NCBI RefSeq assembly: GCF_000008665.1
Contig: NC_000917.1
Location: 1,260,001-1,292,000, forward strand
DNA length: 32,000 nt
Reading direction: 5' to 3'
From: Archaeoglobus fulgidus DSM 4304
GTDB taxonomy: Archaea; Halobacteriota; Archaeoglobi; Archaeoglobales; Archaeoglobaceae
The position numbers and the translations under genes were made by a program. This document shows, one piece after another, positions 1-12,680 of this stretch. The notes under the pieces are model-generated. The model did no database searches, had not been told where the DNA came from, and saw only the letters and a list, made by a program, of their open reading frames with translations. Within the stretch, counting starts at the first letter, position 1. Each line of letters begins with the position of its first letter.

Positions 1-1556
1 TTGCCGAATATCTCATTCAACAAAAGCTTTAAGTAGGCGTTGCCGTTGTAATCACACCTGACGAAAATACTACCCCTTTCGTTCAGCAACTCCCTCCCAA
101 GCCTGATTCTGTTTTCAAGCATCGTTATCCACGTTGCATCCTTGTAACCAACCTTATAGAGAAAGTCAGCTTCCTGCTCTTTGTTGAAGGGAGGGTCGAT
201 GTAGATCGTCTGAACCTTTTCGTAGTACTTGCTCAGCAGCAGATTTAAGGCGTGAAAGTTCTCGCTTTTTATCAAAACACCATCCAAAATCTCATCCAAA
301 TCATTTTCCCTGGTTAAAGCGTCCACCAATTTCCACTTAAAGCTCTCGCTGAAATGTCTCGTGTCAATCGGCAGCTTTTTCCACTCCTTTCCCTCCAGAG
401 TGTGGCCGGAAAGGAGGTCGCCTTTTCCCTTAACTTCGATGCCGAAAAGCTCCCTCCACTCCTCTCTCTGCCTTTCGTTGCTCAAAATCTCGTCAAGAAT
501 GCTTTCTAGGAACTCTTCTCCAGCATACTCCTTAATCCTGTCCAGTGTGATTACGTAATGCGTATCAACAACGAACTTCTTCTTTTCCCAGAGCCTCTTC
601 TGAAAGTTTTCAATCTGCGCCAGAAAATCGATTATCTTCAGAGCGATTCTTCTGAAAACCCTCATTCCAGCAAGGTAAAGTCTCAGCCTCTCAAAATATT
701 TGCTCTCCTCCAAAACCTGCAGGTCCTCCAGCTGCAAAAACTCGTTTTTAATGTAAAAGTCCAATTCACGCTCCAGAAATCCCCTCAAATCCCTGTGAAT
801 GAAATAGTCTGTCGTGTTTCTTCTGGTGTAATTGTAGAGATGCCTTTCAATGTAACTCCTGCCCTTCTGGGAGTTCGGGTCTTTTTCGAAGATTAGTCTT
901 GCCAAACTTTTTTCCGGAATCTTTCTCTGCAAAATCCTAACCGTTTCCTCGTTGATTCTATCCTGCGTTATTCGCTTGAACCTTTTCTCTTCCTCCTCAG
1001 TAAGACCTCTGTATTCAAAGTATATGTTCAGCTCCCTCCTCTCCTCGTCGAAGTCCGCTATTTTTTCACTTAAAACGAAAAACTTCCTCTCCGGTGACTT
1101 TATGTTGCCCTTCTCCTCCTCTGCCTCCACAACTCTAAAGTTAACGGTCAACTCCTTAACCCTAAACGTGTACCTCCCGAAGCATTCGGTGGTTTTTACG
1201 TAATATTGATCCTTGTTTGCCCAGTAAAGCAAAACCTCCTCACCGTTGTAGGGAACGACGTACTTTTCATTCCTTCCGTATCTCCTTTTGCTTATGAAGT
1301 CGCCTTTGTCATAGTACCTTGAGAAGAACGTTATCAGATGATTGTAAACCTCCTTCTCCAGCTCTTCAGCCAATTTCAGCTGATTTTCAATTTCCTCAAT
1401 TAAATCCTTCTCGATGAACCTTTCAATCTCCTCCCGCCTGTAGTTCATTATCCTGTAGATGCCAAAGTCCAGATCAGCATTCTCGAATTGAAACATTTCT
1501 CTTAAATTTGCCTTCAATTTCTCTTTCAGGTCGCTTTTGCCCTCCATACTACCCAT
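1..1556 (-). CDS. DNA N6-adenine/N4-cytosine methyltransferase (beta-class, type III Mod-like), first 518 codons only; the rest lies left of the window
   Basis: Not in the ORF track because it runs off the left edge. My translation of the minus strand from the ATG at 1556 stays open to base 1: MGSMEGKSDLKEKLKANLREMFQFENADLDFGIYRIMNYRREEIERF... Near the edge it reads ...LIKSENFHALNLLLSKYYEKVQTIYIDPPFNKEQ..., which is the catalytic (D/N)PP(Y/F) motif IV preceded by the N-x-x-A-L-x-L-L block typical of Mod-type amino-methyltransferases. Confidence 0.75.
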   Translation of the reverse strand, partial: MGSMEGKSDLKEKLKANLREMFQFENADLDFGIYRIMNYRREEIERFIEKDLIEEIENQLKLAEELEKEVYNHLITFFSRYYDKGDFISKRRYGRNEKYVVPYNGEEVLLYWANKDQYYVKTTECFGRYTFRVKELTVNFRVVEAEEEKGNIKSPERKFFVLSEKIADFDEERRELNIYFEYRGLTEEEEKRFKRITQDRINEETVRILQRKIPEKSLARLIFEKDPNSQKGRSYIERHLYNYTRRNTTDYFIHRDLRGFLERELDFYIKNEFLQLEDLQVLEESKYFERLRLYLAGMRVFRRIALKIIDFLAQIENFQKRLWEKKKFVVDTHYVITLDRIKEYAGEEFLESILDEILSNERQREEWRELFGIEVKGKGDLLSGHTLEGKEWKKLPIDTRHFSESFKWKLVDALTRENDLDEILDGVLIKSENFHALNLLLSKYYEKVQTIYIDPPFNKEQEADFLYKVGYKDATWITMLENRIRLGRELLNERGSIFVRCDYNGNAYLKLLLNEIFG

Positions 1557-1624
1557 CCCTTAGTCTTTAGTCTTATTATCCTACCACCCATTCATTTTTG
1601 AGCGTATCGGTTTCGTGTTCGAGA

Positions 1625-1663
1625 TGTGATATCCCGAATTAATTTCACTCCTCAAACAACCAC
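1625..1663 (+). repeat. Left terminal inverted repeat of the IS (contains the transposase stop codon)
   Basis: About 30 of 40 positions match the reverse complement of 2550-2589 with one small indel. It starts with TGTG, as in IS3/IS481-type ends. Confidence 0.65.
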
Positions 1664-2544
1664 CTCCCGTACTCAAACACCCTTTCAGCAGGTAGCTTCC
1701 TCAAAAAGGCCTGATAGGGAGTCTCCAATTCGTCGAAATTCAGGCTCATGTGAGGCTTAACGTAATTGTACCAATAAATGAACTCATCCAAAGAATCAAA
1801 CAGATGGATCTTCTGCTCCATCAAACCAAAGAACCTCTCTATCTTTCCATTCGTTTGTGGATGGTTTATTCTGGCAAGAACATGCCTTACTCCATTCTCG
1901 GCCAAAAACTCCCTGAATCTATGCTTGGCCTTCTCTCTGCTTTTAGCTGCAACAAACTGAGTTCCGTGATCTGTGAGGATCTCATCCGGAATGCCATACT
2001 CCCTGAATCCCACTTTCAGGACTCTAATCGTGTTCTCAGTCGTAGCTGAATCGAAGACTCCGTAACAAGTAATAAAGCGGGAAGCATCATCCATGAAGGC
2101 TATAATCCATTTCTCTCCAAGCCTCTTCCAGTCTCCCTGCCATAAAGACATTGAGTGGGTTCTTTCGTATCTAACCCATTTCCTTCGTTTCTTCTTGCTC
2201 ATGTTCTCCTCCACCAAACCGTGTTTGAGTAAAACTTTGTAGATTGTATTATGGGAGATGTGGATGCCGTAATCCCTTTCTATCAGCTTTTCAAGAGGTA
2301 CTGGGCTGAGTCTGTATTTTTTGTAAGCTTGCAGGATTATTTTTTCTGTTTCCTCGTCTATTTCCTTGGGCTTTCTTCCCGGTTGTTTCAGTTCTGGAAT
2401 CTGGCCAGTTTCCTCATATTGTTTTTTAAGCTGGTAGATTCTTCTTGGTGTAACTCTCATCACAGCGGCTATTTCCTTTACTGGAGCTCCCTTGTCAAGC
2501 TGTCTGATTATCCACCTGATCTTTTTGTTCGTTAGTTTTCTCAC
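1645..2544 (-). CDS. IS transposase, integrase-core (rve) DDE type with N-terminal HTH, 299 aa
   Basis: The N-terminal HTH reads IRWIIRQLDKGAPVKEIAAVMRVTPRRIYQLKK. The DDE triad contexts are SLWQGDW, ILTDHGTQF and HPQTNGKIERFF, the last being the IS481/IS3 signature. I trimmed the track ORF (1645-2766) to the GTG at 2544 because its first 74 codons cross the IS end and are antisense to tRNA-Gly. Confidence 0.85.
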   Translation of the reverse strand: MRKLTNKKIRWIIRQLDKGAPVKEIAAVMRVTPRRIYQLKKQYEETGQIPELKQPGRKPKEIDEETEKIILQAYKKYRLSPVPLEKLIERDYGIHISHNTIYKVLLKHGLVEENMSKKKRRKWVRYERTHSMSLWQGDWKRLGEKWIIAFMDDASRFITCYGVFDSATTENTIRVLKVGFREYGIPDEILTDHGTQFVAAKSREKAKHRFREFLAENGVRHVLARINHPQTNGKIERFFGLMEQKIHLFDSLDEFIYWYNYVKPHMSLNFDELETPYQAFLRKLPAERVFEYGRWLFEE

Positions 2545-2549
2545 ATGAA

Positions 2550-2589
2550 GTGGGTGTTTAGTAGTGAAATAATTTAGGGATACTACACA
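2550..2589 (-). repeat. Right terminal inverted repeat of the IS
   Basis: It is the reverse complement of the left repeat and lies just upstream of the transposase GTG start at 2544. Confidence 0.65.
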
Positions 2590-2602
2590 AAAAAGCAACA
2601 AC

Positions 2603-2617
2603 GAAAGGCTTATTAAA
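2603..2617 (+). promoter_or_regulatory. BRE/TATA-like box for tRNA-Gly
   Basis: GAAAGGCTTATTAAA is centred about 27 bp upstream of the mature tRNA 5' end and only ~14-20 bp from the IS right end. Confidence 0.45.
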
Positions 2618-2639
2618 CAAGGGACGAAAAGGCTATCAA

Positions 2640-2712
2640 GCGCCGATGGTGTAGCCTGGTAACACAGGGGCTTGCCGAGCCCCTGCCCCGGGTTCAAATC
2701 CCGGTCGGCGCA
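2640..2712 (+). tRNA. tRNA-Gly (anticodon GCC), 73 nt, no encoded CCA, no intron
   Basis: It folds by hand into a cloverleaf: acceptor GCGCCGA/TCGGCGC, D arm GTGT-AGCCTGGTA-ACAC, anticodon stem GGGGC/GCCCC with loop TTGCCGA, T arm CCGGG-TTCAAAT-CCCGG, discriminator A. Confidence 0.93.
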
Positions 2713-2762: not shown

Positions 2763-2996
2763 TCAAACATTAAACTCAACATTGTCCAAGCTCTCAAGCT
2801 CCTGGAGAAGCTGCTCAAGCTCCTGTAGGTCCTTTGTTATGTTGACGTCTTCTATTATTTGTTCCGTTTGCTGCTCTGTTGGAGTAACTTGAGGGGTTGT
2901 TTGAGGTGCGGGTTGATGTTCCACTTGCTTTCCCTGGCAGCCTGCAAAGAGTAAAGCCGCGAGGAGCAGTGCAACAAATGCAATTCTTGACCTCAT
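2763..2996 (-). CDS. Small secreted putative lipoprotein, 77 aa, function unknown
   Basis: The N-terminus is MRSRIAFVALLLAALLFAGC: a basic n-region, a hydrophobic core and a lipobox-like FAGC. It is followed by a Q/T/P-rich linker (QPAPQTTPQVTPTEQQTEQ) and an acidic heptad-like tail (DLQELEQLLQELESL). A GGTGAT Shine-Dalgarno sits 6 nt upstream, inside the end of the preceding gene. Confidence 0.55.
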   Translation of the reverse strand: MRSRIAFVALLLAALLFAGCQGKQVEHQPAPQTTPQVTPTEQQTEQIIEDVNITKDLQELEQLLQELESLDNVEFNV

Positions 2997-3002
2997 GGCT
3001 CA

Positions 3003-4052
3003 TCACCCGAATGTGACAGTTTCACTGCCCTCGAATTCAATTTCGTCAGTCACCGGCCCTGTTGGTGTCTGCTTAACCCTGTAGTATCCCTCTCCATTCA
3101 GCACAAGCTCACCGCTGCCATGAGCAAGGATTCTGAACTCTCCCTGGCCGCTCGCAGTGAAGTTGCCCTTTGCCACTATCATCTTAACTCCGGGAGTGTC
3201 AACCTTTGTAACTATAACCTCTTCCGGAATCGTGACGTTTCCTTCGCCCTTGATCTGCACCATGCTGAAGTTGCCGCTCAGCTCAAAGGAGCCATTTACG
3301 TGTGCGTAGACGAATCCGGTGTGGTACTCCGGTCTTGCCTCCCTCGCCAGCTCCTTTACGATTTCAAAGGCCTCCCTGAAGAGCTGGTTTACTTCCCTCA
3401 CCTTCTCCGCAAACTCTGGTGTACCCACGTAGCTCTCTAGCTCGTCCACAGCTTCCTCAATTTCGCTTATTTTCGCATCCAGTTCACTTACGTCTACTCC
3501 AGCAGCCTCAAGTCTGTCTCTTACCTGTATCAGCCTTTCGAGGATTTGATCGTACTTCTCAATTACGTATTCGTGCGCTGCAGACCTCATCTCCTGTCTA
3601 AGCTCTCCCCACATCCCTTTGATTTCCATGGCAACTTCCCTAAGTTCTGTGTAGTTCTGGGAAGCGTTTATTTCATCTTCAATTTCGTTCAGCCTGTTCT
3701 CTATTTCCTGGAGTTTGTTCATCAGTCTCTCCTTGGTCTCATTTCCAACGTTCATGTTTTGGACTCTCATCTGGACTCTTTCCACCCACCTCTTGGCCAT
3801 CTCAACCCATGCCTGCAGGTGCTTTTTCCACGCCTCAAACCTCTTTTCCTCTGCCTGCTTCCTTGCCTCCTCTATCTTCTGCCTTGTCTGGTTGAACCAT
3901 TCCTTAGCCTTTTGGAATCCTCTCTCCGCATTTTCGAAGCTTGGCTTTCCGTCACCGACCTGGGGCTTTTCCTGCTGCCACGGTGATGCTGCCGATGCTA
4001 CCGACACCAGCAGTATCATCAAGATTCCCATTCCCAGTAAATTCCATCTCAT
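3003..4052 (-). CDS. Secreted coiled-coil protein with C-terminal beta-rich domain, 349 aa, function unknown
   Basis: The track ORF starts at the GTG at 4061, but the ATG at 4052 is preceded by a GAGGTG Shine-Dalgarno. The signal peptide is MRWNLLGMGILMILLVSVASA/AS. About 230 aa are charged and helical (e.g. EEARKQAEEKRFEAWKKHLQAWVEMAKRWVERVQ; LNEIEDEINASQNYTELREVAMEIK). The last ~110 aa are beta-rich with recurring GNF / GxGE strands. Confidence 0.7.
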   Translation of the reverse strand: MRWNLLGMGILMILLVSVASAASPWQQEKPQVGDGKPSFENAERGFQKAKEWFNQTRQKIEEARKQAEEKRFEAWKKHLQAWVEMAKRWVERVQMRVQNMNVGNETKERLMNKLQEIENRLNEIEDEINASQNYTELREVAMEIKGMWGELRQEMRSAAHEYVIEKYDQILERLIQVRDRLEAAGVDVSELDAKISEIEEAVDELESYVGTPEFAEKVREVNQLFREAFEIVKELAREARPEYHTGFVYAHVNGSFELSGNFSMVQIKGEGNVTIPEEVIVTKVDTPGVKMIVAKGNFTASGQGEFRILAHGSGELVLNGEGYYRVKQTPTGPVTDEIEFEGSETVTFG

Positions 4053-4084
4053 TTTCACCACCTCAACCCTAAGTTGGTTTCGGA

Positions 4085-4093
4085 ATTTATAAG
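4085..4093 (-). promoter_or_regulatory. TATA-like box for the coiled-coil gene
   Basis: The minus strand reads CTTATAAAT about 35-40 nt upstream of the ATG at 4052, downstream of a T-run terminator candidate. Confidence 0.4.
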
Positions 4094-4112
4094 GAAACTT
4101 TCGTTCTTATGG

Positions 4113-4130
4113 TTCAAAAAAGCCCGCAAA
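4113..4130 (-). terminator. Oligo-T terminator candidate after the 381-aa gene
   Basis: The minus strand reads GCGGGCTTTTTTGAACC about 75 nt after the stop at 4202. Confidence 0.4.
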
Positions 4131-4201
4131 ATGGATTTAAAGCTTTACGAAGCTTTAGGATACTTCAGAACAGTTAAAAATCGTAGGAGGGGAGTAATTT
4201 T

Positions 4202-5347
4202 TCAAACTCTCCTCCTCAGTGCAATGGTTACGGCAATGGCGATGATTGTAGCGAGAGCTTCAAATCCCGGAGTGGGCTTTTCGGGAAGATGGGGATGGGG
4301 AATAGGGGCACCTTTGCTTGCAGCGAGAACGAAAACTCCACTCTCGTTTGAGCTGTAGCTGAGGGGCATGAACTCACTGCCGTTGTAGTAATCTGAAGCC
4401 AGCTTCAGTTGAGCTCCATCAAAGCGGTATATAGCTAAGGTCTTTTCAAAATCCTCAGACTCCTCCAAGTTAAGCTCAAAATACACCGATCCCTTACCAT
4501 CGTAAATGCTGGGATTGATTGTAACATTCAGGATGCTGCCATACTGAACAAACCCATCGGGCATCTTTAAATTGACAACGGAAATCTGGAAGTTCTCTCC
4601 CGAAACATTGACGCCATCAAAAACGTATGTGTTGCTTAGAGAGGCATCGTCAACAGCATACACTCCCCTCACATCATTTTTGCCCACAATCAGCCTGCTT
4701 TCTGACATGGCATGGATGAAAGCATCTCCATCGAACCTGCAATTTTCAATTAGATTTTCCTCCCCTCCGTTCAGCTCAATCCCATTACTTGTGTTGATTT
4801 CAAGATTTCTCAGCTTAACACCTCTTGAGGACTCCGCAGCAATGGCTATTGCTCCGCCCTCAAAACTGCTGTTTTCAATTTCCAAGGACGAGTCCTCCAA
4901 GCTCACCCCAGTGAAAAATCCGCTGAAGGAGAGCCCTTCAAGCCTCCCACTGCCAATACTGAAGGCTTTAATTCCTTCAAAGTTATTAAAAAAGCTGGAT
5001 TTCTTTATTGAAAGGTTGTTTACGAATCTGATCTCCATTCCAACGCTCCCGTTTTTGATTTCCACACCCTCAAGGGAGAAGCTGTCAACGCCGAAAACCG
5101 ATATTACTGGAAGATGTCTGAACTCAGGCTCGATAACTGCGCCATCCCCCAAAATCCTCAGCGACTTCTGTATTACTAAATTTTCTCTGTAAATGCCCGA
5201 TTCGATTAAAATTGTATCGCCGTTGGTTGAGGCTGCTATTGCATCGCTGATTGTTGTAAAATCGCACTGACCGCAAACCCTTAGGGTTGCAGCCGATACC
5301 TGCGGTGTTGCTGCAAGCAGTATCAGCATGACGAAAAGAAGCCTCAT
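4202..5347 (-). CDS. Secreted right-handed beta-helix (PbH1/NosD-like) protein with C-terminal PGF-CTERM anchor signal, 381 aa
   Basis: The signal peptide is MRLLFVMLILLAATPQVSA/AT. The beta-helix cap motif is FTTISDAIAASTNGDTILIESGIYRENLVI, followed by repetitive ~22-aa beta-helix turns (EGVEIKNG, LSIKKSSFFNN, LEIENSSFEGG, LRNLEINTSNG). The tail is PHLPEKPTPGFEALATIIAIAVTIALRRRV. Its ATG overlaps the stop of the giant gene (ATGA). Confidence 0.8.
   Translation of the reverse strand: MRLLFVMLILLAATPQVSAATLRVCGQCDFTTISDAIAASTNGDTILIESGIYRENLVIQKSLRILGDGAVIEPEFRHLPVISVFGVDSFSLEGVEIKNGSVGMEIRFVNNLSIKKSSFFNNFEGIKAFSIGSGRLEGLSFSGFFTGVSLEDSSLEIENSSFEGGAIAIAAESSRGVKLRNLEINTSNGIELNGGEENLIENCRFDGDAFIHAMSESRLIVGKNDVRGVYAVDDASLSNTYVFDGVNVSGENFQISVVNLKMPDGFVQYGSILNVTINPSIYDGKGSVYFELNLEESEDFEKTLAIYRFDGAQLKLASDYYNGSEFMPLSYSSNESGVFVLAASKGAPIPHPHLPEKPTPGFEALATIIAIAVTIALRRRV
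4205..4270 (-). other. PGF-CTERM-type sorting signal (PGF + hydrophobic helix + RRR) at the C-terminus of the 381-aa protein
   Basis: The translated tail PGFEALATIIAIAVTIALRRRV follows a Pro-rich linker. This matches the tripartite archaeosortase A recognition architecture known from haloarchaeal and methanogen surface glycoproteins. Confidence 0.6.
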
Positions 5348-8300
5348 TTTTTCACCACCCGAATTTCAATGTTCCCTTCGTAGGTGACATCACGGCTTCC
5401 GGTGTAGCTGCGGGTCATCTGGCATTCGCGGTATCCACAATCCCATGTGTAGCTGGTGGATGAGGGAGTAGAGCGTTTTACATTATACTGCCCTCTCACT
5501 TCCTCCCATCTGTCCTCTCCAACTTTCTCAAGGATTATGCATCCCCAGAAGGGGTTTTTATCTGTTACAGACGGGTATGTTTCTACCCACACATTCTGAA
5601 CTTCAGCAAAATTACCCTCGTGGCAGCCCTCTCTCAAATTCGTAGGATTGGTTTCCGGATTCCCGTCATACTGGCAGCCTCCAGAATCGCTGTAAGAGTA
5701 TGTCTCGCTACCGCTCCCCTTCGAAGAGCTCCATGAGACAGTACTCACACTGCTGTATGTGTGGCTGTCAGAGCCTTTCATGCTGAAGCTAAGAGGGACT
5801 GGCGCTATGCAAACAAGCAAATCTCCGCTTGGGGTTTCGTAAACCATTTCAGTTTTCACATCTCCAACATGAGCCGACACCGTTCCGGAGAAGGAGCCCT
5901 GAGAACTCGATGACGAACTCACACTATTATCGCAAAAGCTGCTACTACCTCCTCCGCTATTTTCGCTGTTGTAGAACTTGGATTGTATGAATGTGGCGGT
6001 TGTCCGCTCATCTTCTCCACCCTGCTTCCATGTAGTCTGGGAGGTGAAGAAGTAAGAGTGTCCGCGAGCCTCATTCAGTGTTTTTGAATAACTTCCGCTA
6101 TCAGTCTCCCAGTGACATTCTGAATCATCAGGGCAGCACAGGGCTTGCATTGAATGAGATAGCTCCTCAGTTCCGGATAAACTCGTCACCGAAATCGCAG
6201 ACCACTTGATGAATAATGTGAATTCCTTTTCTTTCACCTTTATGCTCGCTGAATCCCTCACCACTCCGAGTTCGCTTCTATACTCAAAACTCATTCTTGC
6301 AAGCCCCTCCTTCTCCCCGGCAGTATATTTCAGCTTGGCAACACCGTTTTCATCAGTTACGGGATTTCCGGAGGCATCTAACACCCCCGCAGGAGTTAGC
6401 CTGCCGTCAAGAAGCTGATTTCTGCCCACCACTATGGATTTTCCGGCTAAGGGCTCTCTCTCCCCCTTTTCGTTTTCCCTGTAGAGGCTGACCTCCACGA
6501 AGGTTGAGTGTCTTGGGAGTATCTCCCTCTCAGCCTTCACGTCCATCTTCACACCATTTATTTTGATTACCGCGACAGCAGTAGCTTTTTTCATCCCCCT
6601 GCCGAAGGTTACAACTTTAACCAAATCCTCTCCGGCCTCTATGCCTTCTTTGAGCGTGTATTTCGCCACAGCAGTCCCCCCCTCGATCCCCTCTCCAGCT
6701 GTTCTCGTATCTCCAATGACCCACTGGTTGGAGCTAACAATCTCCCCCTCCGTTGAGACTTTCGTAGCTTCCCAATCTGCCCTCACGACTCCCCTTTCCG
6801 TTTCCTTCTGGAAGTAAACCTCCTGCCTCCTCAGCACGTTGCCGAGAGATTCGCTGATCCAGACCGCAGGTTTTCCTCTGCAGTCTGTAACCTTTGCGTA
6901 GATGGTGGCCTCTCTGCTCTCTTCCGAATCAGGTGAAACCGAGTCAGGGACAACCTTGATCTCTATCCTCGGATCTCTCGGCGGAACTGGTCTCTTCATC
7001 TCAAAATCGTCAATTATCTGCCTTAAATCGCCAGTCCTCTGAATTATCAGCCCCACATTGTCCAGAGGATTGCTAACTTCGGTCACATAGTAGTAAGTTT
7101 CAGGAAGTATCGTGCGCTGGGGAAACTCCTGCAGGTCTGCGGTGATGTGGTAGTAATGCATGTCCCCACCAATTTTTATAACGTAGAAGTAATCCGGCAT
7201 GCCGGGATTTCTTAAAGCGGTTTCCGCCTGATTCAGAACCTCAATTAGATCGTTGACGCTGTAAACCTCCACTTCAGGAGACGTGCTCCTCACGAACTCC
7301 GTCGCTCTTGCCGCCAGAAAACTGCTGATTTTAGCTTTGTCAGCTTCTTCAAAGCCCTCAATCCCGTAAAGGAGCTTAATGTCATCTCTGAGCATGTCCA
7401 ACGCAGTGTCGTCCAGAACTACGGCAACACCGACCTTCGGCTTGGAGCATGCGCTAATCCCCTCAAGCCTTATGTATTTTTCAGAAATTTTCTCCACCAG
7501 ATTTCTTCCTTCCAATCCCCACATCTCAAGCCCGGAAGAGCTCCTTTCATACAGGAACTCAAGCTCAAGGTTTCTCGTAACCTTTCTGCCACAATCAGCA
7601 GAAATCAGCGTTAGCGGTATTCGGTAAACCTTCCCGCTTCCGCTGTAAGCCTCCCCCGTCAGGTAGTATTTTCCGGGCTTTATTGTGAAGCTGTAGTCGT
7701 AGTGGTTTCCGCTGATTTCCATTTCCTCGAAATCCATGGTGTAGAAGTCTATCAGCCTGATTCTGCTAAGCACGATTGGAGAGGTGTCATCGGTATATCT
7801 GAGATACGTCCCCTCCACAGTGGAATCTTTGAAGCAGACGTGGAAGGTTGTGATGTCGTCATCCAGAAGCTCTCCTGATTCGTTGTAAAGGCTGCTCCTC
7901 AGGATGTATGTGCCCTCTGTCCAGTCTGCGACAATTTCGTTAAGTGCAACGAAGTAGTCGGAGTGAATTGGGGCGTAATTTTTAATCTCAGGCTCTTCGG
8001 AAAGCACTGGGAGGTATATTCGGTCACCATCCGGGCTTTCCAGCGAGACCATCAGCGTTCCATTCTTCTGGCTACCCGTAAGCATGTGCTCAACCAGAAT
8101 CTCCTGCCCCCTGCTGAAAACATCCCTGTTAACGTAGAGCTTCACTGAAACTTTCTGGCTGTGGTAGATTTTTTCGGTTGAGACGGAAACTTTTTTGCCA
8201 TAGCTGTCAACAATTTTCCCCACCAGCAGGTAAGTGCCCTCTTCCATGCCGTCAAAATCAAGCGTTGACGGAAGCTTTCCGTAGTAGCTTAATTTCAGAT

Positions 8301-11300
8301 ACCTGCCATCAATCGGCCTCTCCTCTTCGCTCCAGTCGGGATAGTAGAGCTTTCTGCCCAGAGGTGTGAGCAGATAAACGTAGCCCTCGTAACCCTCGCT
8401 TGCACCATCAACTTTCAAGTAAGCTTGCATAGTCTCGTTCGCTGAAATCGCCCTGTCGAAGGTGAAAACGGTTATCTGGGGGAAGGTGACGTTCTGGTTG
8501 GGTATGAGAGTAACGTTCCTCACAACCCAGCCTTCCTCGCCCCCACTCTCAGCGTTCTCGGAGATGAACGAAATTATGTTCTCAACATCCGCACTGACGT
8601 TTGAGATGGGCACCTCGTAAACCTGGTATGACTGGGTTGGAGTGAATGAGAAGACCATTCCTCCCTGAAGGTCGTTATACTGCATGACGCCATCCCTGTA
8701 GAACTGGTTTACGTGGACGTCAATTCTGGCGTCTCCTTTAGCTTCAAACTGCAGGATGTAATCGCAATCTCTGCCAAAGAAGGAGAAGGCAACATCCTCC
8801 ACGAACCTTGGAGTGGTTTCTGTTCCCGCGATGCTGACCTCTCCGAGAGCTAAGGGAACTATTTTGAACTCGACCTCCCCTCTGCCCTTCTTGCCGTAAT
8901 AGTCCTCTCCGTTGACGATGATTCTGTGCTCGCCAAGAGAGAGGCGTGTGAGCTTAACGCTTCCAGAGGTGGCAAAGAGTGGGATGTCTATTCTCTCAGC
9001 ACTTCCATCATCAAGGATGAAAGACGCCCTCGCCAGAGGAACGGTGGAGACGAAGTTTAAATCAAGCTCCCTTTCCACATACTCCTCGTTTTTCGGATTG
9101 ATGATTTTAATCTCAAACTCAGGCTCAACAACCTCTTCCAGCGGTGGGGGTGATTTGACACCTCCTCCACCACCACCTGCTCCACCACCCGCTCCTCCCC
9201 CAGAAGAGATGCTGATGGAGAAGTTCACGATGGTGGAGTTGAGGTTCCCAGCAGTGTCGTTGACGTAAACCCTGAGATTGTAGTTTCCGTTGCTCAATCC
9301 GCTGATGGTGGTGTTCGGGGTGAAGGTTACGTTGGCTCCTGAGTTAAGGCTATACCACCACCTGTCAACATCGGGGTCGGGGGAGTAAACCTCAAGGTAA
9401 ACGTAGTTGGCTGAATAGGTTCTGCCCTCCACTGGAGAAACAACGTAAATCGCCGGAGCCCTGAAGTCCGGGTTGGGGTTTGTTAAGGGGTGGTAATCTC
9501 CCCCGTTCTGAATGTTACCGCCGGAATTGTATGGCAGAAGAGTATCGCCTAAGCCATCTCCACCTGCAACATCCTCTCCCGCATAGTCGTGCCAGTAGTT
9601 GCCCCCAAGATAGGGCCCGCCAATTATGTTCTCATCTGCTGTTGGGGTGACGTTCCATCGGTTGTTTCCGGTGTCGTAGGCATTGACGGAGTGGTTGAAG
9701 AAGTAGTTGTTGTAAATCAGGTTGCCTGAGGATGAGGTGGAGTGGATGCCGTATTTCTGTCCTCCCCTCCATGCGCCATGTATTGGGACTTTTTTAGCTT
9801 TGATGTAGCTGGAGGTTATTGTGTTGCCCTCAGATTCGTAAAGCTTGACTCCGCTCCCTCCTGAGTAGCAGTCGTCTGCAATTGGTGAGAACTCAATGTA
9901 GGGCCCGTTGTCTGTTATGTTTGCCCCTCTTACAGTATTGTTGCTGGAGTAGCTGAACTCTATCCCGTAGCACCAGTTTGAGTTGATTTCCGACTTCTCA
10001 ACCGCCACATTCTCGGATTTTCCAAGAAATACTCCCGCTGCCTCGTTCCTGTCACCGTTCCACTCGAAGGTGGAGTTGGTGATGGTTATGTTGCTTGAGT
10101 AGTATGCGGCCAGCCCGGCGAGGTGGTTGTAGTATGCCCCAACGGATTCTATGGCTGAGTGAGAGGTGTTGTAGAGTATTATTCCGTGTGAGTTGGAGGA
10201 TAAACCAAGATTTTTCAGCGTGATATTTTTGCAGTTGGCGCATGCAAAAAATCCGACGGGAGGATTGGCAGAGTGGTCTAAAACCAGATCAGAAGCATTT
10301 TTGAGGAAGTAAATCGCCCCTCCGGTAACAACATTGGAAGTGTCTATGTCGTGGTTGAAGTCCTCAAAAACTGGGGCGATTTCGTAGTCACCAATCTCGC
10401 CTGCGTCAAAGTAAAAGTCGTAGGTGTTCTGCAGCAGACTGTTGTCCCTCATGGTTATATTGGTGGAAAATGCCGACATTGAGGAGGTGTCAATTTTCAC
10501 ACCTGCATACTTTTGATTTACAGTGTTGTTCACAAGAATGCAGTTGCTCACATGATTTAGCTTTATGCCATCGTCATCCTCAAGAATTGGCGTAAAGCCG
10601 TTTATGATGTTGTCTGCGATCACACATCCGTTGGAGCTTACAGCAATCCCGCCATATCCTTCAAGGATGTTGCCGGAGATGTTCGTGTAATCTGCATAGC
10701 TTTTTATCCATATGGCCGGCATTGTGGATTGGTAGTATTTCACGAAGCGGTTTCCGTGGATGGTGTTGTGCGATGCCTTTCTATACTGCGCCCCCTCAAC
10801 CACAATGTAGCCGTAGGAGGTTTGATTCAGGAAGGTGTTGAAGGAGATTTCGTTGTAACTGGACTGCTCAATGGTTACCATAGAGCTTTCGAAGATATTA
10901 CCGGTTATCGTGTTTCGATTCGAGCCGGAGCTTATGTAGCCCTTAACCAGCACAACACCGCCATTGACGAACCTGTTGTTTCTTATGACATTGTCTGTAG
11001 ATTCAAAATCGGTTATCTGTGTGCAGTCTCCAAGCCCTGTTATCTCGTAGGTGGTGTAGCCAACTTTAATTCCTCCATGCTTTACATATCCGTAGCACTC
11101 CCCATAAGAGGCGTTTTTGATTGTAAATCCCTGAATAATGTTCCCATTCGACTTAAGCGTGAATCCGCTTCCGCTGTTATTCGCTTCCACGACCGGATTG
11201 CCCATCCCAGTGATGTTCAGAGTCCTGTTTACGACGATGTTTTCGACATAAGTGCCATTGCAAACGACAATCGTGTCTCCGTCAATTGAAGCATTAACAG

Positions 11301-12603
11301 CATCCTGAATGCTTGCGAAGTCTGCGGAGCAGTTTTGCCCATCATCATCCACATACCATGTCTTTGGATTTCTGATAGTGGTGAAGCTCATGATAGAGCT
11401 GTTTGAATAAAGGCTTGCATTGTCAGGTCTGAAGGAGTAGACTGAGAAGTAGTAAGCTGTGCCTGCCGATAGCCCGCTTAAAGTTATCATGGGACTGTCT
11501 GTGCTGTTGTCCCAAGCTGACCATTGCGGGGATGAAAGGTCGGAGTTCGTGCTGAACAGAACACGGTTGTTTGCAGCTAAGCTAACATCCCATCTTATCG
11601 TGGCACTTGAGTTCGTTACGTCACTAACTCTCACATTCGAGATTGCTGGAGGCTGAAGAGTTTCGAAGAGCATTGGATAGTAGTCTTTTGATTGGCTTGC
11701 AGAACCTGAACCACCAATTGGTAGTGGTATACCACCTCCTCCGCGCCCTCCATCCGCTCCTCCACCTTCCTCACCACACCACTCACTGGAGATGTTGTAA
11801 GGTGTGTCTCCTATCCCATCTCCGTTGGAATCTGCTCCAACATAGTCATCCCAGTAATTGCCTGTATAATTGGTGAACACATTGCCCTGATAGGCGTATT
11901 GATGCATCTCCGTGGAGTTCCAGTGGTTCCTTCCGCAATCGCGGGCATTTACGCTGTTGTTTATGAAACGGTTGAGGTAAATCTCGCTCTCCCTTCCCGA
12001 ACCCATATTAATTCCGTAACTGGTTGCATCTCTGATGGTGTTGTTCACGATGGTGTTGAAGTATGAACTTCCGTAGATGTAAACACCAGTCTCAACAGCA
12101 GTGATGTTATTATCCCTAACAACAGTATAATTCGAATCCTCAATCTGAATCCCGCCATACAGGTTGTAAAAAACATTGTTTGAGATATTCACGTGGTCGG
12201 ACGGGTCTCCGTTGAGTGGCTCTACGTCAACACCATCATCGTTGCCGTTCCTTATCGTGAAGCCCGTGATGGTTACGAAATCTGCATGCACTTCAATAAC
12301 ATCATCATTCGTGCTCGCCTCAAGAATGCAGTTCGCAGTGCCATTTTCCGACCTGAGGGTTATGCTCTTTGTGATGTTCAGATAAACGCTGTAAACGCCA
12401 TCTCTCACAACGACCGTGTCTCCATCGCTTGCAGAATCAATTACCTCCTGAATCGTCTTGTTGTCGGGAACAACTATAACTGCTCCATGAACGGGAATGA
12501 TAAGCATTACCAATAATATCCCCAAAAACCCCAGAATCCTCAAATTAACACTCCTTTCGCTAACTACAGAAAAATCACAGGTGTTCAGAGCATTTGTGCT
12601 CAT
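5344..12603 (-). CDS. Giant secreted surface protein (~2,419 aa): three PbH1/NosD-like beta-helix modules, FN3-like and Ig-like modules, long beta-rich C-terminal half; no C-terminal anchor
   Basis: The track ORF starts at the TTG at 12630. The ATG at 12603 has a GAGGTG Shine-Dalgarno 6 nt upstream, and the ATG at 12621 is also possible. The signal peptide is ...LRILGFLGILLVMLIIPVHGA/VIVV. Cap motifs occur at KTIQEVIDSASDGDTVVVRDGVY and FASIQDAVNASIDGDTIVVCNGTY. Helix end-caps occur at GNYWDDYVGADSNGDGIGDTPY and GNYWHDYAGEDVAGGDGLGDTLLPY. An FN3-like stretch reads ISNVRVSDVTNSSATIRWD...GLSAGTAYYFSVYSF. There are Gly linkers and a Big_1-like stretch (DASGNPVTDENGVAKLKYTAGEKEG). NxS/T sequons are very dense. 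Confidence 0.9.
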   Translation of the reverse strand: MSTNALNTCDFSVVSERSVNLRILGFLGILLVMLIIPVHGAVIVVPDNKTIQEVIDSASDGDTVVVRDGVYSVYLNITKSITLRSENGTANCILEASTNDDVIEVHADFVTITGFTIRNGNDDGVDVEPLNGDPSDHVNISNNVFYNLYGGIQIEDSNYTVVRDNNITAVETGVYIYGSSYFNTIVNNTIRDATSYGINMGSGRESEIYLNRFINNSVNARDCGRNHWNSTEMHQYAYQGNVFTNYTGNYWDDYVGADSNGDGIGDTPYNISSEWCGEEGGGADGGRGGGGIPLPIGGSGSASQSKDYYPMLFETLQPPAISNVRVSDVTNSSATIRWDVSLAANNRVLFSTNSDLSSPQWSAWDNSTDSPMITLSGLSAGTAYYFSVYSFRPDNASLYSNSSIMSFTTIRNPKTWYVDDDGQNCSADFASIQDAVNASIDGDTIVVCNGTYVENIVVNRTLNITGMGNPVVEANNSGSGFTLKSNGNIIQGFTIKNASYGECYGYVKHGGIKVGYTTYEITGLGDCTQITDFESTDNVIRNNRFVNGGVVLVKGYISSGSNRNTITGNIFESSMVTIEQSSYNEISFNTFLNQTSYGYIVVEGAQYRKASHNTIHGNRFVKYYQSTMPAIWIKSYADYTNISGNILEGYGGIAVSSNGCVIADNIINGFTPILEDDDGIKLNHVSNCILVNNTVNQKYAGVKIDTSSMSAFSTNITMRDNSLLQNTYDFYFDAGEIGDYEIAPVFEDFNHDIDTSNVVTGGAIYFLKNASDLVLDHSANPPVGFFACANCKNITLKNLGLSSNSHGIILYNTSHSAIESVGAYYNHLAGLAAYYSSNITITNSTFEWNGDRNEAAGVFLGKSENVAVEKSEINSNWCYGIEFSYSSNNTVRGANITDNGPYIEFSPIADDCYSGGSGVKLYESEGNTITSSYIKAKKVPIHGAWRGGQKYGIHSTSSSGNLIYNNYFFNHSVNAYDTGNNRWNVTPTADENIIGGPYLGGNYWHDYAGEDVAGGDGLGDTLLPYNSGGNIQNGGDYHPLTNPNPDFRAPAIYVVSPVEGRTYSANYVYLEVYSPDPDVDRWWYSLNSGANVTFTPNTTISGLSNGNYNLRVYVNDTAGNLNSTIVNFSISISSGGGAGGGAGGGGGGVKSPPPLEEVVEPEFEIKIINPKNEEYVERELDLNFVSTVPLARASFILDDGSAERIDIPLFATSGSVKLTRLSLGEHRIIVNGEDYYGKKGRGEVEFKIVPLALGEVSIAGTETTPRFVEDVAFSFFGRDCDYILQFEAKGDARIDVHVNQFYRDGVMQYNDLQGGMVFSFTPTQSYQVYEVPISNVSADVENIISFISENAESGGEEGWVVRNVTLIPNQNVTFPQITVFTFDRAISANETMQAYLKVDGASEGYEGYVYLLTPLGRKLYYPDWSEEERPIDGRYLKLSYYGKLPSTLDFDGMEEGTYLLVGKIVDSYGKKVSVSTEKIYHSQKVSVKLYVNRDVFSRGQEILVEHMLTGSQKNGTLMVSLESPDGDRIYLPVLSEEPEIKNYAPIHSDYFVALNEIVADWTEGTYILRSSLYNESGELLDDDITTFHVCFKDSTVEGTYLRYTDDTSPIVLSRIRLIDFYTMDFEEMEISGNHYDYSFTIKPGKYYLTGEAYSGSGKVYRIPLTLISADCGRKVTRNLELEFLYERSSSGLEMWGLEGRNLVEKISEKYIRLEGISACSKPKVGVAVVLDDTALDMLRDDIKLLYGIEGFEEADKAKISSFLAARATEFVRSTSPEVEVYSVNDLIEVLNQAETALRNPGMPDYFYVIKIGGDMHYYHITADLQEFPQRTILPETYYYVTEVSNPLDNVGLIIQRTGDLRQIIDDFEMKRPVPPRDPRIEIKVVPDSVSPDSEESREATIYAKVTDCRGKPAVWISESLGNVLRRQEVYFQKETERGVVRADWEATKVSTEGEIVSSNQWVIGDTRTAGEGIEGGTAVAKYTLKEGIEAGEDLVKVVTFGRGMKKATAVAVIKINGVKMDVKAEREILPRHSTFVEVSLYRENEKGEREPLAGKSIVVGRNQLLDGRLTPAGVLDASGNPVTDENGVAKLKYTAGEKEGLARMSFEYRSELGVVRDSASIKVKEKEFTLFIKWSAISVTSLSGTEELSHSMQALCCPDDSECHWETDSGSYSKTLNEARGHSYFFTSQTTWKQGGEDERTTATFIQSKFYNSENSGGGSSSFCDNSVSSSSSSQGSFSGTVSAHVGDVKTEMVYETPSGDLLVCIAPVPLSFSMKGSDSHTYSSVSTVSWSSSKGSGSETYSYSDSGGCQYDGNPETNPTNLREGCHEGNFAEVQNVWVETYPSVTDKNPFWGCIILEKVGEDRWEEVRGQYNVKRSTPSSTSYTWDCGYRECQMTRSYTGSRDVTYEGNIEIRVVKK

Positions 12604-12680
12604 TTTCAGCACCTCTGTCATCCCAAGCAATAGGCAAAAAATAGCCCGTAGCTTGGTTTCGCCAATTCAACTTTAATCAA

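Follow-up and report, generated by a model that had tools for sequence, protein, structure and literature searches.

The window analysed here is a 32,000-nucleotide stretch of the Archaeoglobus fulgidus DSM 4304 chromosome (NC_000917.1, positions 1,260,001 to 1,292,000), and the element under study is a run of four consecutive minus-strand open reading frames (ORFs) at 5344-12603/12630, 4202-5347, 3003-4052/4061 and 2763-2996. The first of these, the giant gene (5344-12603, minus strand), encodes 2,419 aa when read from the ATG at 12603, which has GAGGTG 6 nt ahead of it; alternative upstream starts lie at ATG 12621 and TTG 12630, and public gene calls give the protein as 2,419 aa (NCBI) or 2,425 aa (JGI). 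It is followed by the gene for a 381-aa partner protein (4202-5347, minus strand), composed of a signal peptide, a cap motif, a NosD-like beta-helix, a conserved C-terminal beta-rich domain, a linker and an anchor; the identical 381-aa protein is also encoded on CP006577.1 and on several metagenome contigs. The third gene (3003-4052, minus strand) specifies a 349-aa coiled-coil protein in which a signal peptide precedes ~220 residues of helix and a Gly-rich beta domain that is conserved, and the fourth (2763-2996, minus strand) a 77-aa lipobox protein whose conserved C-terminal helix, LQELEQLLQELE.LDNV, comes after LFAGC. The giant and its partner are together termed Unit A, and the coiled-coil and lipobox genes Unit B. 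An earlier reading made without database searches (the sequence-only reading) had joined all four genes into one surface module, each protein with an export signal but only one with a membrane anchor. All four N-termini do appear Sec-like when read by eye, the partner is anchored and the giant has no anchor, but the predicted lipobox protein would be membrane-anchored too. The four-gene grouping is corrected here: sequence comparisons make it moderately probable that positions 4202-12603 form a conserved, self-contained two-gene archaeal surface cassette, in which the anchored partner would tether a glycosylated beta-helix fibre of adhesive or glycan-binding character.

The two genes of this pair meet in a tight junction. 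As had been read previously, the stop codon of the giant gene overlaps the start codon of the partner in an ATGA at 5344-5347 (minus strand), and the Shine-Dalgarno (SD) sequence of the partner, GGTGGTGA (5352-5359, minus strand), is located within the conserved last codons of the giant (VVK), an arrangement also found in L007, L015 and L016 (compared loci and proteins are cited by L and P numbers). These three loci share the -4 overlap, the spacing is +5 nt in L011 and +4 nt in L022, and the called start in L009 leaves 44 nt; at five tight junctions the last codons of the upstream gene contain either GGTGGTGA or GAGGTGA. The giant and its full-length orthologues have no anchor and end in VVK[RK], and the codons of this terminus, GGTGGTGAA(A/G)A(A/G)(A/G)TGA (window 5347-5361; L007, L015 and L016), double as the SD and start region of the partner. 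As VVK(R/K) is encoded by exactly the partner SD, its conservation may partly reflect a nucleotide-level constraint. On this layout, the giant and the partner are predicted to be translationally coupled.

The distal half of the giant is a modular array, all parts of which are encoded on the minus strand. Its signal peptide (aa 1-41; 12481-12603), read from the sequence and ending ...ILGFLGILLVMLIIPVHGA, includes the sole hydrophobic stretch of the protein (aa 23-36) and has equivalents at the N-termini of orthologues. Behind it lie beta-helix module 1 (aa 42-270; 11794-12480), with a cap motif at aa 51-73 and the end motif GNYWDDY...GDGIGDT at aa 248; an FN3 domain (aa ~320-418; 11350-11646; Pfam fn3); module 2 (aa 427-714; 10462-11325), with a cap motif at aa 432-454; module 3 (aa 788-1022; 9538-10242), which has no cap motif and carries the end motif GNYWHDY...GDGLGDT at aa 1001; and an Ig-like module (aa ~1040-1132; 9208-9486) that runs into a Gly-rich linker (aa 1133-1148). 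Pfam scores agree with the three beta-helix modules originally proposed: NosD (PF05048) matches five stretches at 228.6 bits (cut-off 23.6), the best of them aa 801-1009 in module 3, and Beta_helix (PF13229) matches three at 95.6 bits (cut-off 25.9), whilst a hidden Markov model (HMM) of the partner family picks out aa 27-233, 427-669 and 792-934. The closing motif GNYW(D/H)DY..GDG(I/L)GDT was likewise found twice, at aa 248 and 1001. The giant has the cap motif at aa 51 and 432 and the partner has it at aa 33, but in a slightly looser pattern than the one that had been written for it. The FN3-like module passes the Pfam cut-off when aa 300-425 are scanned alone (PF00041, 27.9 bits against 25; 19.7 bits in the full-length scan), but the Ig-like module stays under its cut-offs (Big_13, 21.6 bits against 27; PKD, 17.9 bits). 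This N-terminal array differs between lineages: P0012-P0015 have additional beta-helices, and PKD domains appear in Methanosarcina. The constant parts are the middle region, the C-terminal module (C-module) and the partner. The distal half is most likely a glycan-binding or adhesive head.

The conserved base of the giant (aa 1154-2419) is of a different kind. It opens with a beta-rich middle region (aa 1154-1718; 7450-9144, minus strand) which belongs to no Pfam family, yields HMM matches of 370-1,010 bits in every orthologue and contains a weak internal repeat detected by hhalign; the same program found no relationship between this region and the C-module that follows. The C-module begins with an alpha/beta domain (aa 1719-1873; 6985-7449, minus strand) headed by a near-invariant CSKPK motif, continues with two Ig-like beta-sandwich domains of invasin/macroglobulin-like fold (aa ~1878-2125; 6229-6972, minus strand) and closes with a terminal domain (aa 2127-2419; 5347-6225, minus strand) that has eight antiparallel strands of 18-30 residues and 10 Cys and ends in ...IEIRVVKK. 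No Pfam family, Big_1 included, reached E<=1 against aa 1150-2419 (the last ~1,260 residues), and sequence and profile searches of the Protein Data Bank (PDB) with the last 1,260 residues and with the C-module returned nothing credible. An AlphaFold2 model of aa 1719-2419 (the last 701 residues, from a 13-sequence alignment) nevertheless reached a mean predicted local distance difference test (pLDDT) of 83.3, and the terminal domain modelled alone gave a pLDDT of 81.6 and a predicted template modelling (TM) score of 0.72. A Big_1/invasin-like stretch had been suspected here: it finds no counterpart in Pfam, but in the model the two Ig domains resemble FdeC and InvE at the level of the fold. 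Foldseek aligns these two domains with complement C3/C5, CVF, TEP1, FdeC and InvE at a probability of ~1.0 but with TM-scores of <=0.2, as single domains only are superposable. In common with intimin/invasin (FdeC, InvE) and macroglobulin arrays, the giant carries Ig domains (aa ~1878-2125), but it has no Big_1 or MG Pfam match, no N-terminal membrane beta-barrel and no thioester motif (CxEQ was looked for and is absent). A possible internal lipobox at ISAC-SKPK was rejected, as orthologues do not have it and no hydrophobic segment precedes it.

Parts of the C-module have a wider distribution than the giant itself. An exhaustive profile search of 1.84 billion proteins retrieved 140 cluster representatives at E<=1e-3, of which 94 also pass E<=1e-30, a count made with the C-module profile alone that takes in stand-alone and bacterial-looking homologues. 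Many of these relatives are stand-alone proteins of 600-720 aa, in which the Cys of a C[SPK][KA]P[KR] motif lies 1-5 residues past the predicted signal-peptide cleavage site; the stand-alone homologues sampled (P0163, P0170 and P0171) have a signal peptide of their own. In a wider uncharacterised family (P0147, P0175, P0177, P0179, P0184 and P0188) only the CSKPK alpha/beta domain and the two Ig domains are common, and the C-termini are unrelated. The divergent member P0147 (L058 10001-12004) adjoins an OmpA-family gene, and its bacterial-looking surroundings contain no beta-helix genes; the alpha/beta and Ig core therefore appears, from sequence, to be more widespread than the cassette.

Head and base also differ in their N-glycosylation sequons. 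The 12 sequons previously counted in the first 345 residues of the giant are present, and residues 1-1150 hold 40, compared with 21.5+-4.1 in shuffled sequences, so that sequon density in the distal region is above chance. Across 12 orthologues (the P0002-P0015 set), sequons number 3.5-4.8 per 100 aa in the N-terminal array, 1.1-2.7 in the middle region and 0-0.2 in the C-module. This gradient is kept in all 12, where the sequon-poor stretch corresponds to the last 650-730 residues. Summed over the 12 C-modules, 5 sequons were observed against 49 expected from shuffles, although these sequences are related and cannot count as 12 separate tests; sequons also tend to be depleted in stand-alone C-modules. 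The pattern suggests a head that is exposed and glycosylated, and a base that would be kept glycan-free, most simply by burial in protein-protein contacts.

Conservation of the pair was examined with HMMs of the C-module, middle region, N-terminal array, partner, coiled-coil protein and lipoprotein, run on all ORFs of 57 loci, 18 of which were metagenomic loci found by the C-module. Searches with the giant recovered full-length orthologues of 39-60% identity and 82-99% coverage in records labelled Archaeoglobus sp., Methanocellales and ANME-1, half-length matches from Methanosarcina, and dozens of beta-helix surface proteins overall. In every locus that has downstream DNA, the partner gene is the next one after the giant or after a detached C-module. 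In L007/L008, L009/L010, L011/L012 (two copies) and L015 the gene directly behind the giant encodes a NosD/Beta_helix protein of ~400-425 aa, and the giant is followed by the partner in two further Archaeoglobales (L021 and L022). The fused form of the giant occurs in 11 distinct lineages (A. fulgidus, L007, L009, L011, L015/L041, L021, L022, L043, L044, L046 and L051), and a split, three-gene form in five loci (L016, L050/L052, L054, L055 and L056); three fragments at contig ends (L049, L053 and L057) show a C-module and then the partner. In the split form the giant extends no further than its middle region, and an ORF of ~670-760 aa that overlaps both neighbours encodes the C-module on its own (L016 13131-15152; L050, L052, L054, L055 and L056). 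In Methanosarcina sp. MTP4 (L016), for example, the giant stops early and an overlapping 673-aa ORF, aligned to aa 1804-2205 of the A. fulgidus giant (E=1e-37), precedes the partner. Counted as distinct loci, the pair recurs in ~14, from genomes of Archaeoglobi, ANME-1 type and Methanosarcina. The genes flanking the pair differ in each genome (L007, L009, L011, L015 and L016 loci). A separate search with four partner sequences rested on the cap motif alone and retrieved mostly unrelated bacterial beta-helix proteins (L023-L039), which were set aside. The claim that an anchored partner accompanies an unanchored giant is therefore supported, and the pair is conserved in other Archaeoglobales and in methanogens, where a check of synteny had been suggested; the full four-gene order is a different matter, considered below.

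The partner itself is, by sequence, a paralogue (~400 aa) of a single beta-helix module of the giant type. It scores 32.5 bits against Pfam NosD (cut-off 23.6) and 39.0 against Beta_helix (cut-off 25.9), and of its two hydrophobic stretches one is the signal peptide and the other spans aa 364-377. The latter belongs to the PGF-CTERM tail recognised in the sequence-only reading (aa 358-381, PGFEALATIIAIAVTIALRRRV; 4205-4276, minus strand), in which a PGF motif, a hydrophobic helix and a basic RRR end are plain to see, with a marginal pass in Pfam (PF18204, 19.0 bits against 18.8) and scores below the cut-off for TIGR04126 (17.6 against 24.5) and Heimdall-CTERM (21.7 against 24). Table 2 of PMC5244752, with A. 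fulgidus taken as the last column, gives one archaeosortase A and three PGF-CTERM proteins for strain DSM 4304. The window itself contains no archaeosortase A gene. Seven aligned partner orthologues share the signal peptide, beta-helix, C-terminal beta-rich domain and Pro/Thr-rich linker, and six of the seven have a Cys pair ahead of the cap motif. A C-terminal anchor is present in all seven, as PGFE, helix and basic tail in four and as a plain transmembrane (TM) helix with a basic tail in three; PGFE is conserved in L007, L009 and L015 besides A. fulgidus, and this form is referred to as Archaeoglobi-type. In one lineage only, Archaeoglobus sp. GB_MAG3_049 (L007 11294-12061), a gene for an Rce1-like/CPBP intramembrane protease starts one base past the stop codon of the PGF-CTERM partner.

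When the partner profile was compared with the PDB, the best match was NosD (7o0y, E=4.6e-13), followed by PL6 alginate lyases, pectinesterases, C5-epimerases and tail spikes, which places the partner in the generic class of carbohydrate-active beta-helix proteins. The giant and partner could accordingly be extracellular polysaccharide-active enzymes that remodel exopolysaccharide or the biofilm matrix, their adjacency reflecting shared regulation. The NosD/CASH class of the beta-helix modules, with 228 bits for the giant against Pfam NosD, and the partner's matches to PL6 alginate lyases, pectinesterases and mannuronan C5-epimerases are in keeping with such a role. However, apart from the PL6 alginate lyase 7dmk (E=7.7e-11), the matches to characterised enzymes are weak (E 1e-7 to 1e-2) and concern the generic fold only; no catalytic motif was seen, although none was searched for specifically; and enzymatic activity leaves unexplained both the 1,260-aa non-enzymatic chassis and its fission into an ORF between the giant and the partner. 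We regard this alternative as unlikely.

As NosD is the closest solved structure by sequence and the best Pfam match for the beta-helix modules, the two proteins might instead be NosD homologues in the strict sense that, together with an ABC transporter, deliver copper or sulfur to a periplasmic enzyme in the manner of NosDFY in N2O-reductase maturation. An ABC ATPase and a 12-TM protein do follow the partner paralogues in L011, but in that lineage only. The size and architecture of the giant are entirely different, as a glycoprotein of 2,419 aa that includes FN3 and Ig domains does not resemble NosD, and the equivalog model TIGR04247 gives 159.6 bits for the giant and 36 for the partner against a cut-off of 300. 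Moreover, nosZ, nosF, nosY and nosL are not among the flanking genes examined (CLC, pterin-binding protein, DMRL synthase, aminotransferase, transposase and methyltransferase; the Pfam scan covered the window up to 22.7 kb of its 32 kb). The failed equivalog score and the missing nos genes effectively refute a NosD function. The arrangement in L011 (17225-22200) consists of two tandem partner paralogues with plain TM anchors ahead of the two transporter genes, and is superficially NosD-NosF-NosY-like.

Public records label the giant either "NosD domain-containing protein" or "Surface layer protein B (SlgB-2)", and the latter name raises the question of whether it is the lattice-forming S-layer protein of A. 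fulgidus, with the partner as a membrane stalk. The nearest functional analogue of the cassette would indeed be the SlaA/SlaB pair of the Sulfolobales, in which a large, N-glycosylated, unanchored exported protein is likewise found beside a smaller, C-terminally anchored one; SlaB presumably holds SlaA on the cell. The juxtaposition of a large unanchored protein, a glycoprotein to judge by its sequons, with a small anchored protein agrees with this possibility, as does the report that the S-layer of Archaeoglobus has been imaged but that no recognised domain of this type is present in any protein of the genus (PMC9012536). Several differences from SlaA/SlaB are nonetheless apparent: no sequence relationship was seen, both proteins described here are NosD-like beta-helices, Archaeoglobi-type copies have a PGF-CTERM (lipid) anchor and the partner has no coiled-coil stalk, and the cassette appears to be sporadic in its clade and not universal. 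The origin of the SlgB-2 label could not be traced; it reads as homology-based, and no experimental paper or other experimental support was found for it. The Methanosarcina protein behind the SlgB name is presumably not the S-layer protein of that genus, which according to the title of PMC3361143 is a DUF1608 protein. We estimate that a layer with six 265-kDa subunits in each 17.5-nm hexagonal cell would have to be unusually thick. Above all, three Archaeoglobi (L017-L019) lack the cassette at the syntenic site, although copies may lie elsewhere in their genomes, and the copy in L014 is decayed, which would not be expected of an essential wall protein. An S-layer role is disfavoured on these grounds; we consider it distinctly unlikely.

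Under the tethering model that we prefer, the giant would be exported by Sec and made in step with its partner by translational coupling. The lipid-anchored partner would then dock the sequon-free base of the giant, which might oligomerise beforehand, and this docking would hold the glycosylated beta-helix fibre on the cell surface, where the head would bind or act on glycans. A number of observations weigh against the proposal. Adjacency and coupling speak for co-production, which is not the same as docking, and the partner may be an anchored enzyme or adhesin that acts independently. Since beta-helices are just as characteristic of polysaccharide lyases, epimerases and hydrolases, the head may be catalytic instead of adhesive. 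Sequon depletion in the base could stem from something other than interface burial, for example fast folding or low Asn content. The decayed copy in L014 (5712-12215), in which the giant is cut to 1,831 aa and followed by short ORFs matching the C-module and partner HMMs, indicates that the cassette is dispensable in some lineages. The literature on SlgB and the A. fulgidus S-layer yielded no experimental work on these genes, including their expression or localisation, and the genome paper for strain 7324 makes no mention of them. Finally, oligomerisation of the terminal domain is speculation: with this domain Foldseek returned only secretins and outer-membrane barrels, at TM-scores of <=0.25 and a root-mean-square deviation of ~20 A, none of them a real homologue.

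The resemblance to secretins deserves some comment. In common with the C-domain of PilQ, pIV, PulD and InvG, the terminal domain is modelled as a sheet of very long antiparallel beta-hairpins, but its strands are polar and Ser/Thr-rich (Ser 17.5%, Thr 9% and Gly 9%). Given these polar strands and the 10 Cys that it contributes to the 29 of the giant, the modelled domain does not appear to be a lipid-embedded barrel; A. fulgidus is not known to have an outer membrane. The likeness only hints at possible oligomerisation. A bolder form of the tethering model, possible though rather doubtful, envisages a new archaeal tethering apparatus, in which the base forms a ring- or barrel-like socket that is held by the PGF-CTERM partner and displays interchangeable glycosylated heads in Archaeoglobi, ANME-1-type archaea and Methanosarcina. 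If true, this apparatus would represent a new class of surface appendage, which in syntrophic consortia might help cells to make contact with one another or with minerals.

Archaeal genomes abound in large beta-helix "adhesin-like" proteins, which rank with their commonest unexplained items, and we know of no general account of how those without an anchor stay on the cell. Like other archaeal CASH/NosD/PbH1 proteins of this description, the giant combines a signal peptide, tandem beta-helices, FN3/PKD/Ig spacers and dense sequons, but only a small subfamily also has the 1,260-aa chassis and a coupled anchored partner; no published description of the chassis or the cassette was found. The cassette can be defined in three parts, namely a variable glycosylated head, a constant sequon-free base outside database families and a coupled, lipid-anchored partner, and it offers a concrete tethering hypothesis for anchorless giants, together with two confident models that cover ~700 residues without a Pfam match. 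The fused and split variants, and the Archaeoglobus lineages with and without the cassette, provide ready-made comparisons.

Unit B behaves differently. The 349-aa coiled-coil protein has 12 relatives of 38-83% identity, and in L017, L018 and L019 its gene stands directly after the same CLC and pterin-binding genes and is followed by a gene for 77-87 aa, with no giant or partner between (L017 9001-10304; L018 9001-10298; L019 9001-10325). Among the 57 loci, Unit B genes were found only in those of A. fulgidus, in L017-L019 and in L040, and in ~13 other contexts the giant and partner have neither the coiled-coil nor the lipobox gene beside them. Only L040 among other lineages has the four-gene order: in this Archaeoglobus-like locus (its pterin-binding protein is 79% identical) the sequence of CLC, pterin-binding protein, giant, partner, coiled-coil protein and lipoprotein is that of the window. 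L040 contains many frameshifts, which hit the coiled-coil gene too and are likely the result of poor assembly. Neither Unit B protein has a Pfam family; matches of the coiled-coil protein to Rad50, SMC and V-SNARE in Pfam/NCBIfam fall far under the cut-offs and were dismissed as compositional, and a PDB profile search with the coiled-coil family gave generic coiled-coil noise only. Orthologues of the coiled-coil protein keep the Gly-rich C-terminal beta domain. The lipoprotein has the lipobox LLFAGC, and four orthologues share AGCQ without change; its C-terminal helix is conserved as well, and the heptads of this helix could pair with the coiled coil.

The spacer that separates the two units (4053-4201, minus strand) contains T5 and T6 runs (T6 at 4116-4121), AAAGTTTCCTTATAAAT (TATA, 4085-4092) and the SD GAGGTGGTGA (4055-4064); the T6 run at 4116-4121, the TATA-like box TTATAAAT (4085-4092) and the SD GGGTGATGA ahead of the lipobox ATG, all remarked upon in the sequence-only reading, are present. 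This partner-to-coiled-coil spacer aligns with the pterin-to-coiled-coil spacer of L017-L019, sharing a tandem TAAAG just past the stop codon and the promoter core, and the core formed by the transcription factor B recognition element (BRE) and TATA box ahead of the coiled-coil gene, AAAGTTTC.TTATA, is invariant in four genomes. Neither the tandem TAAAG nor the promoter-core motifs occur in the pterin-to-giant spacer of the window. A scan for bacterial promoters and terminators gave counts at the level of shuffled sequence; its consensus is bacterial and the host archaeal. As the spacer is homologous to the pterin-to-coiled-coil spacer of genomes devoid of the cassette, the coiled-coil/lipoprotein pair is predicted to have its own ancestral promoter, and the ~8.5-kb cassette between the pterin gene and this promoter is read as an insertion in the lineage leading to A. 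fulgidus and L040, although loss in the other lineages is conceivable.

These findings bear directly on the original proposal that the giant, the partner, a coiled-coil stalk and the lipoprotein may all build a single envelope structure. Four predicted exported proteins are encoded side by side on one strand, their order after the CLC and pterin-binding genes is repeated in L040, and the coiled-coil protein is sequon-rich as well (8 sequons against 1.4 expected), all of which would fit a joint assembly. Yet Unit B exists without the giant and partner in L017-L019, the giant and partner exist without Unit B in the ~13 contexts noted above, T-runs, together with a distinct promoter that is ancestrally conserved, lie between the pairs, and the spacer past the partner has its homologue in cassette-less genomes. 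A single four-protein structure is hence highly improbable. What survives of the proposed module is its anchored and unanchored pair; Units A and B appear from this comparison to be separable and unrelated, and Unit B to be specific to Archaeoglobi.

Upstream of the giant are genes for the pterin-binding protein, the CLC channel, DMRL synthase and other housekeeping functions, whilst downstream of the lipobox gene there is a plus-strand tRNA-Gly(GCC) (2640-2712), the sole match in an Rfam scan, and an rve-family, IS481-like transposase gene on the minus strand (1645 to ~2600). Instead of the tRNA and transposase, L017 and L018 have 5-FTHF cyclo-ligase or HMG-CoA reductase after the lipoprotein gene, and a number of metagenome contigs break off at the transposase, close to it or just past the lipoprotein gene. 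The contig ends at the transposase, together with the differing downstream genes in L017 and L018, suggest that a multi-copy insertion sequence and a strain-specific island lie beside the lipoprotein gene (window 1-2712). A gene for a 966-aa N6/N4 DNA methyltransferase crosses the start of the window, with a ResIII/SNF2 helicase gene beyond it (L001 12747-20015).

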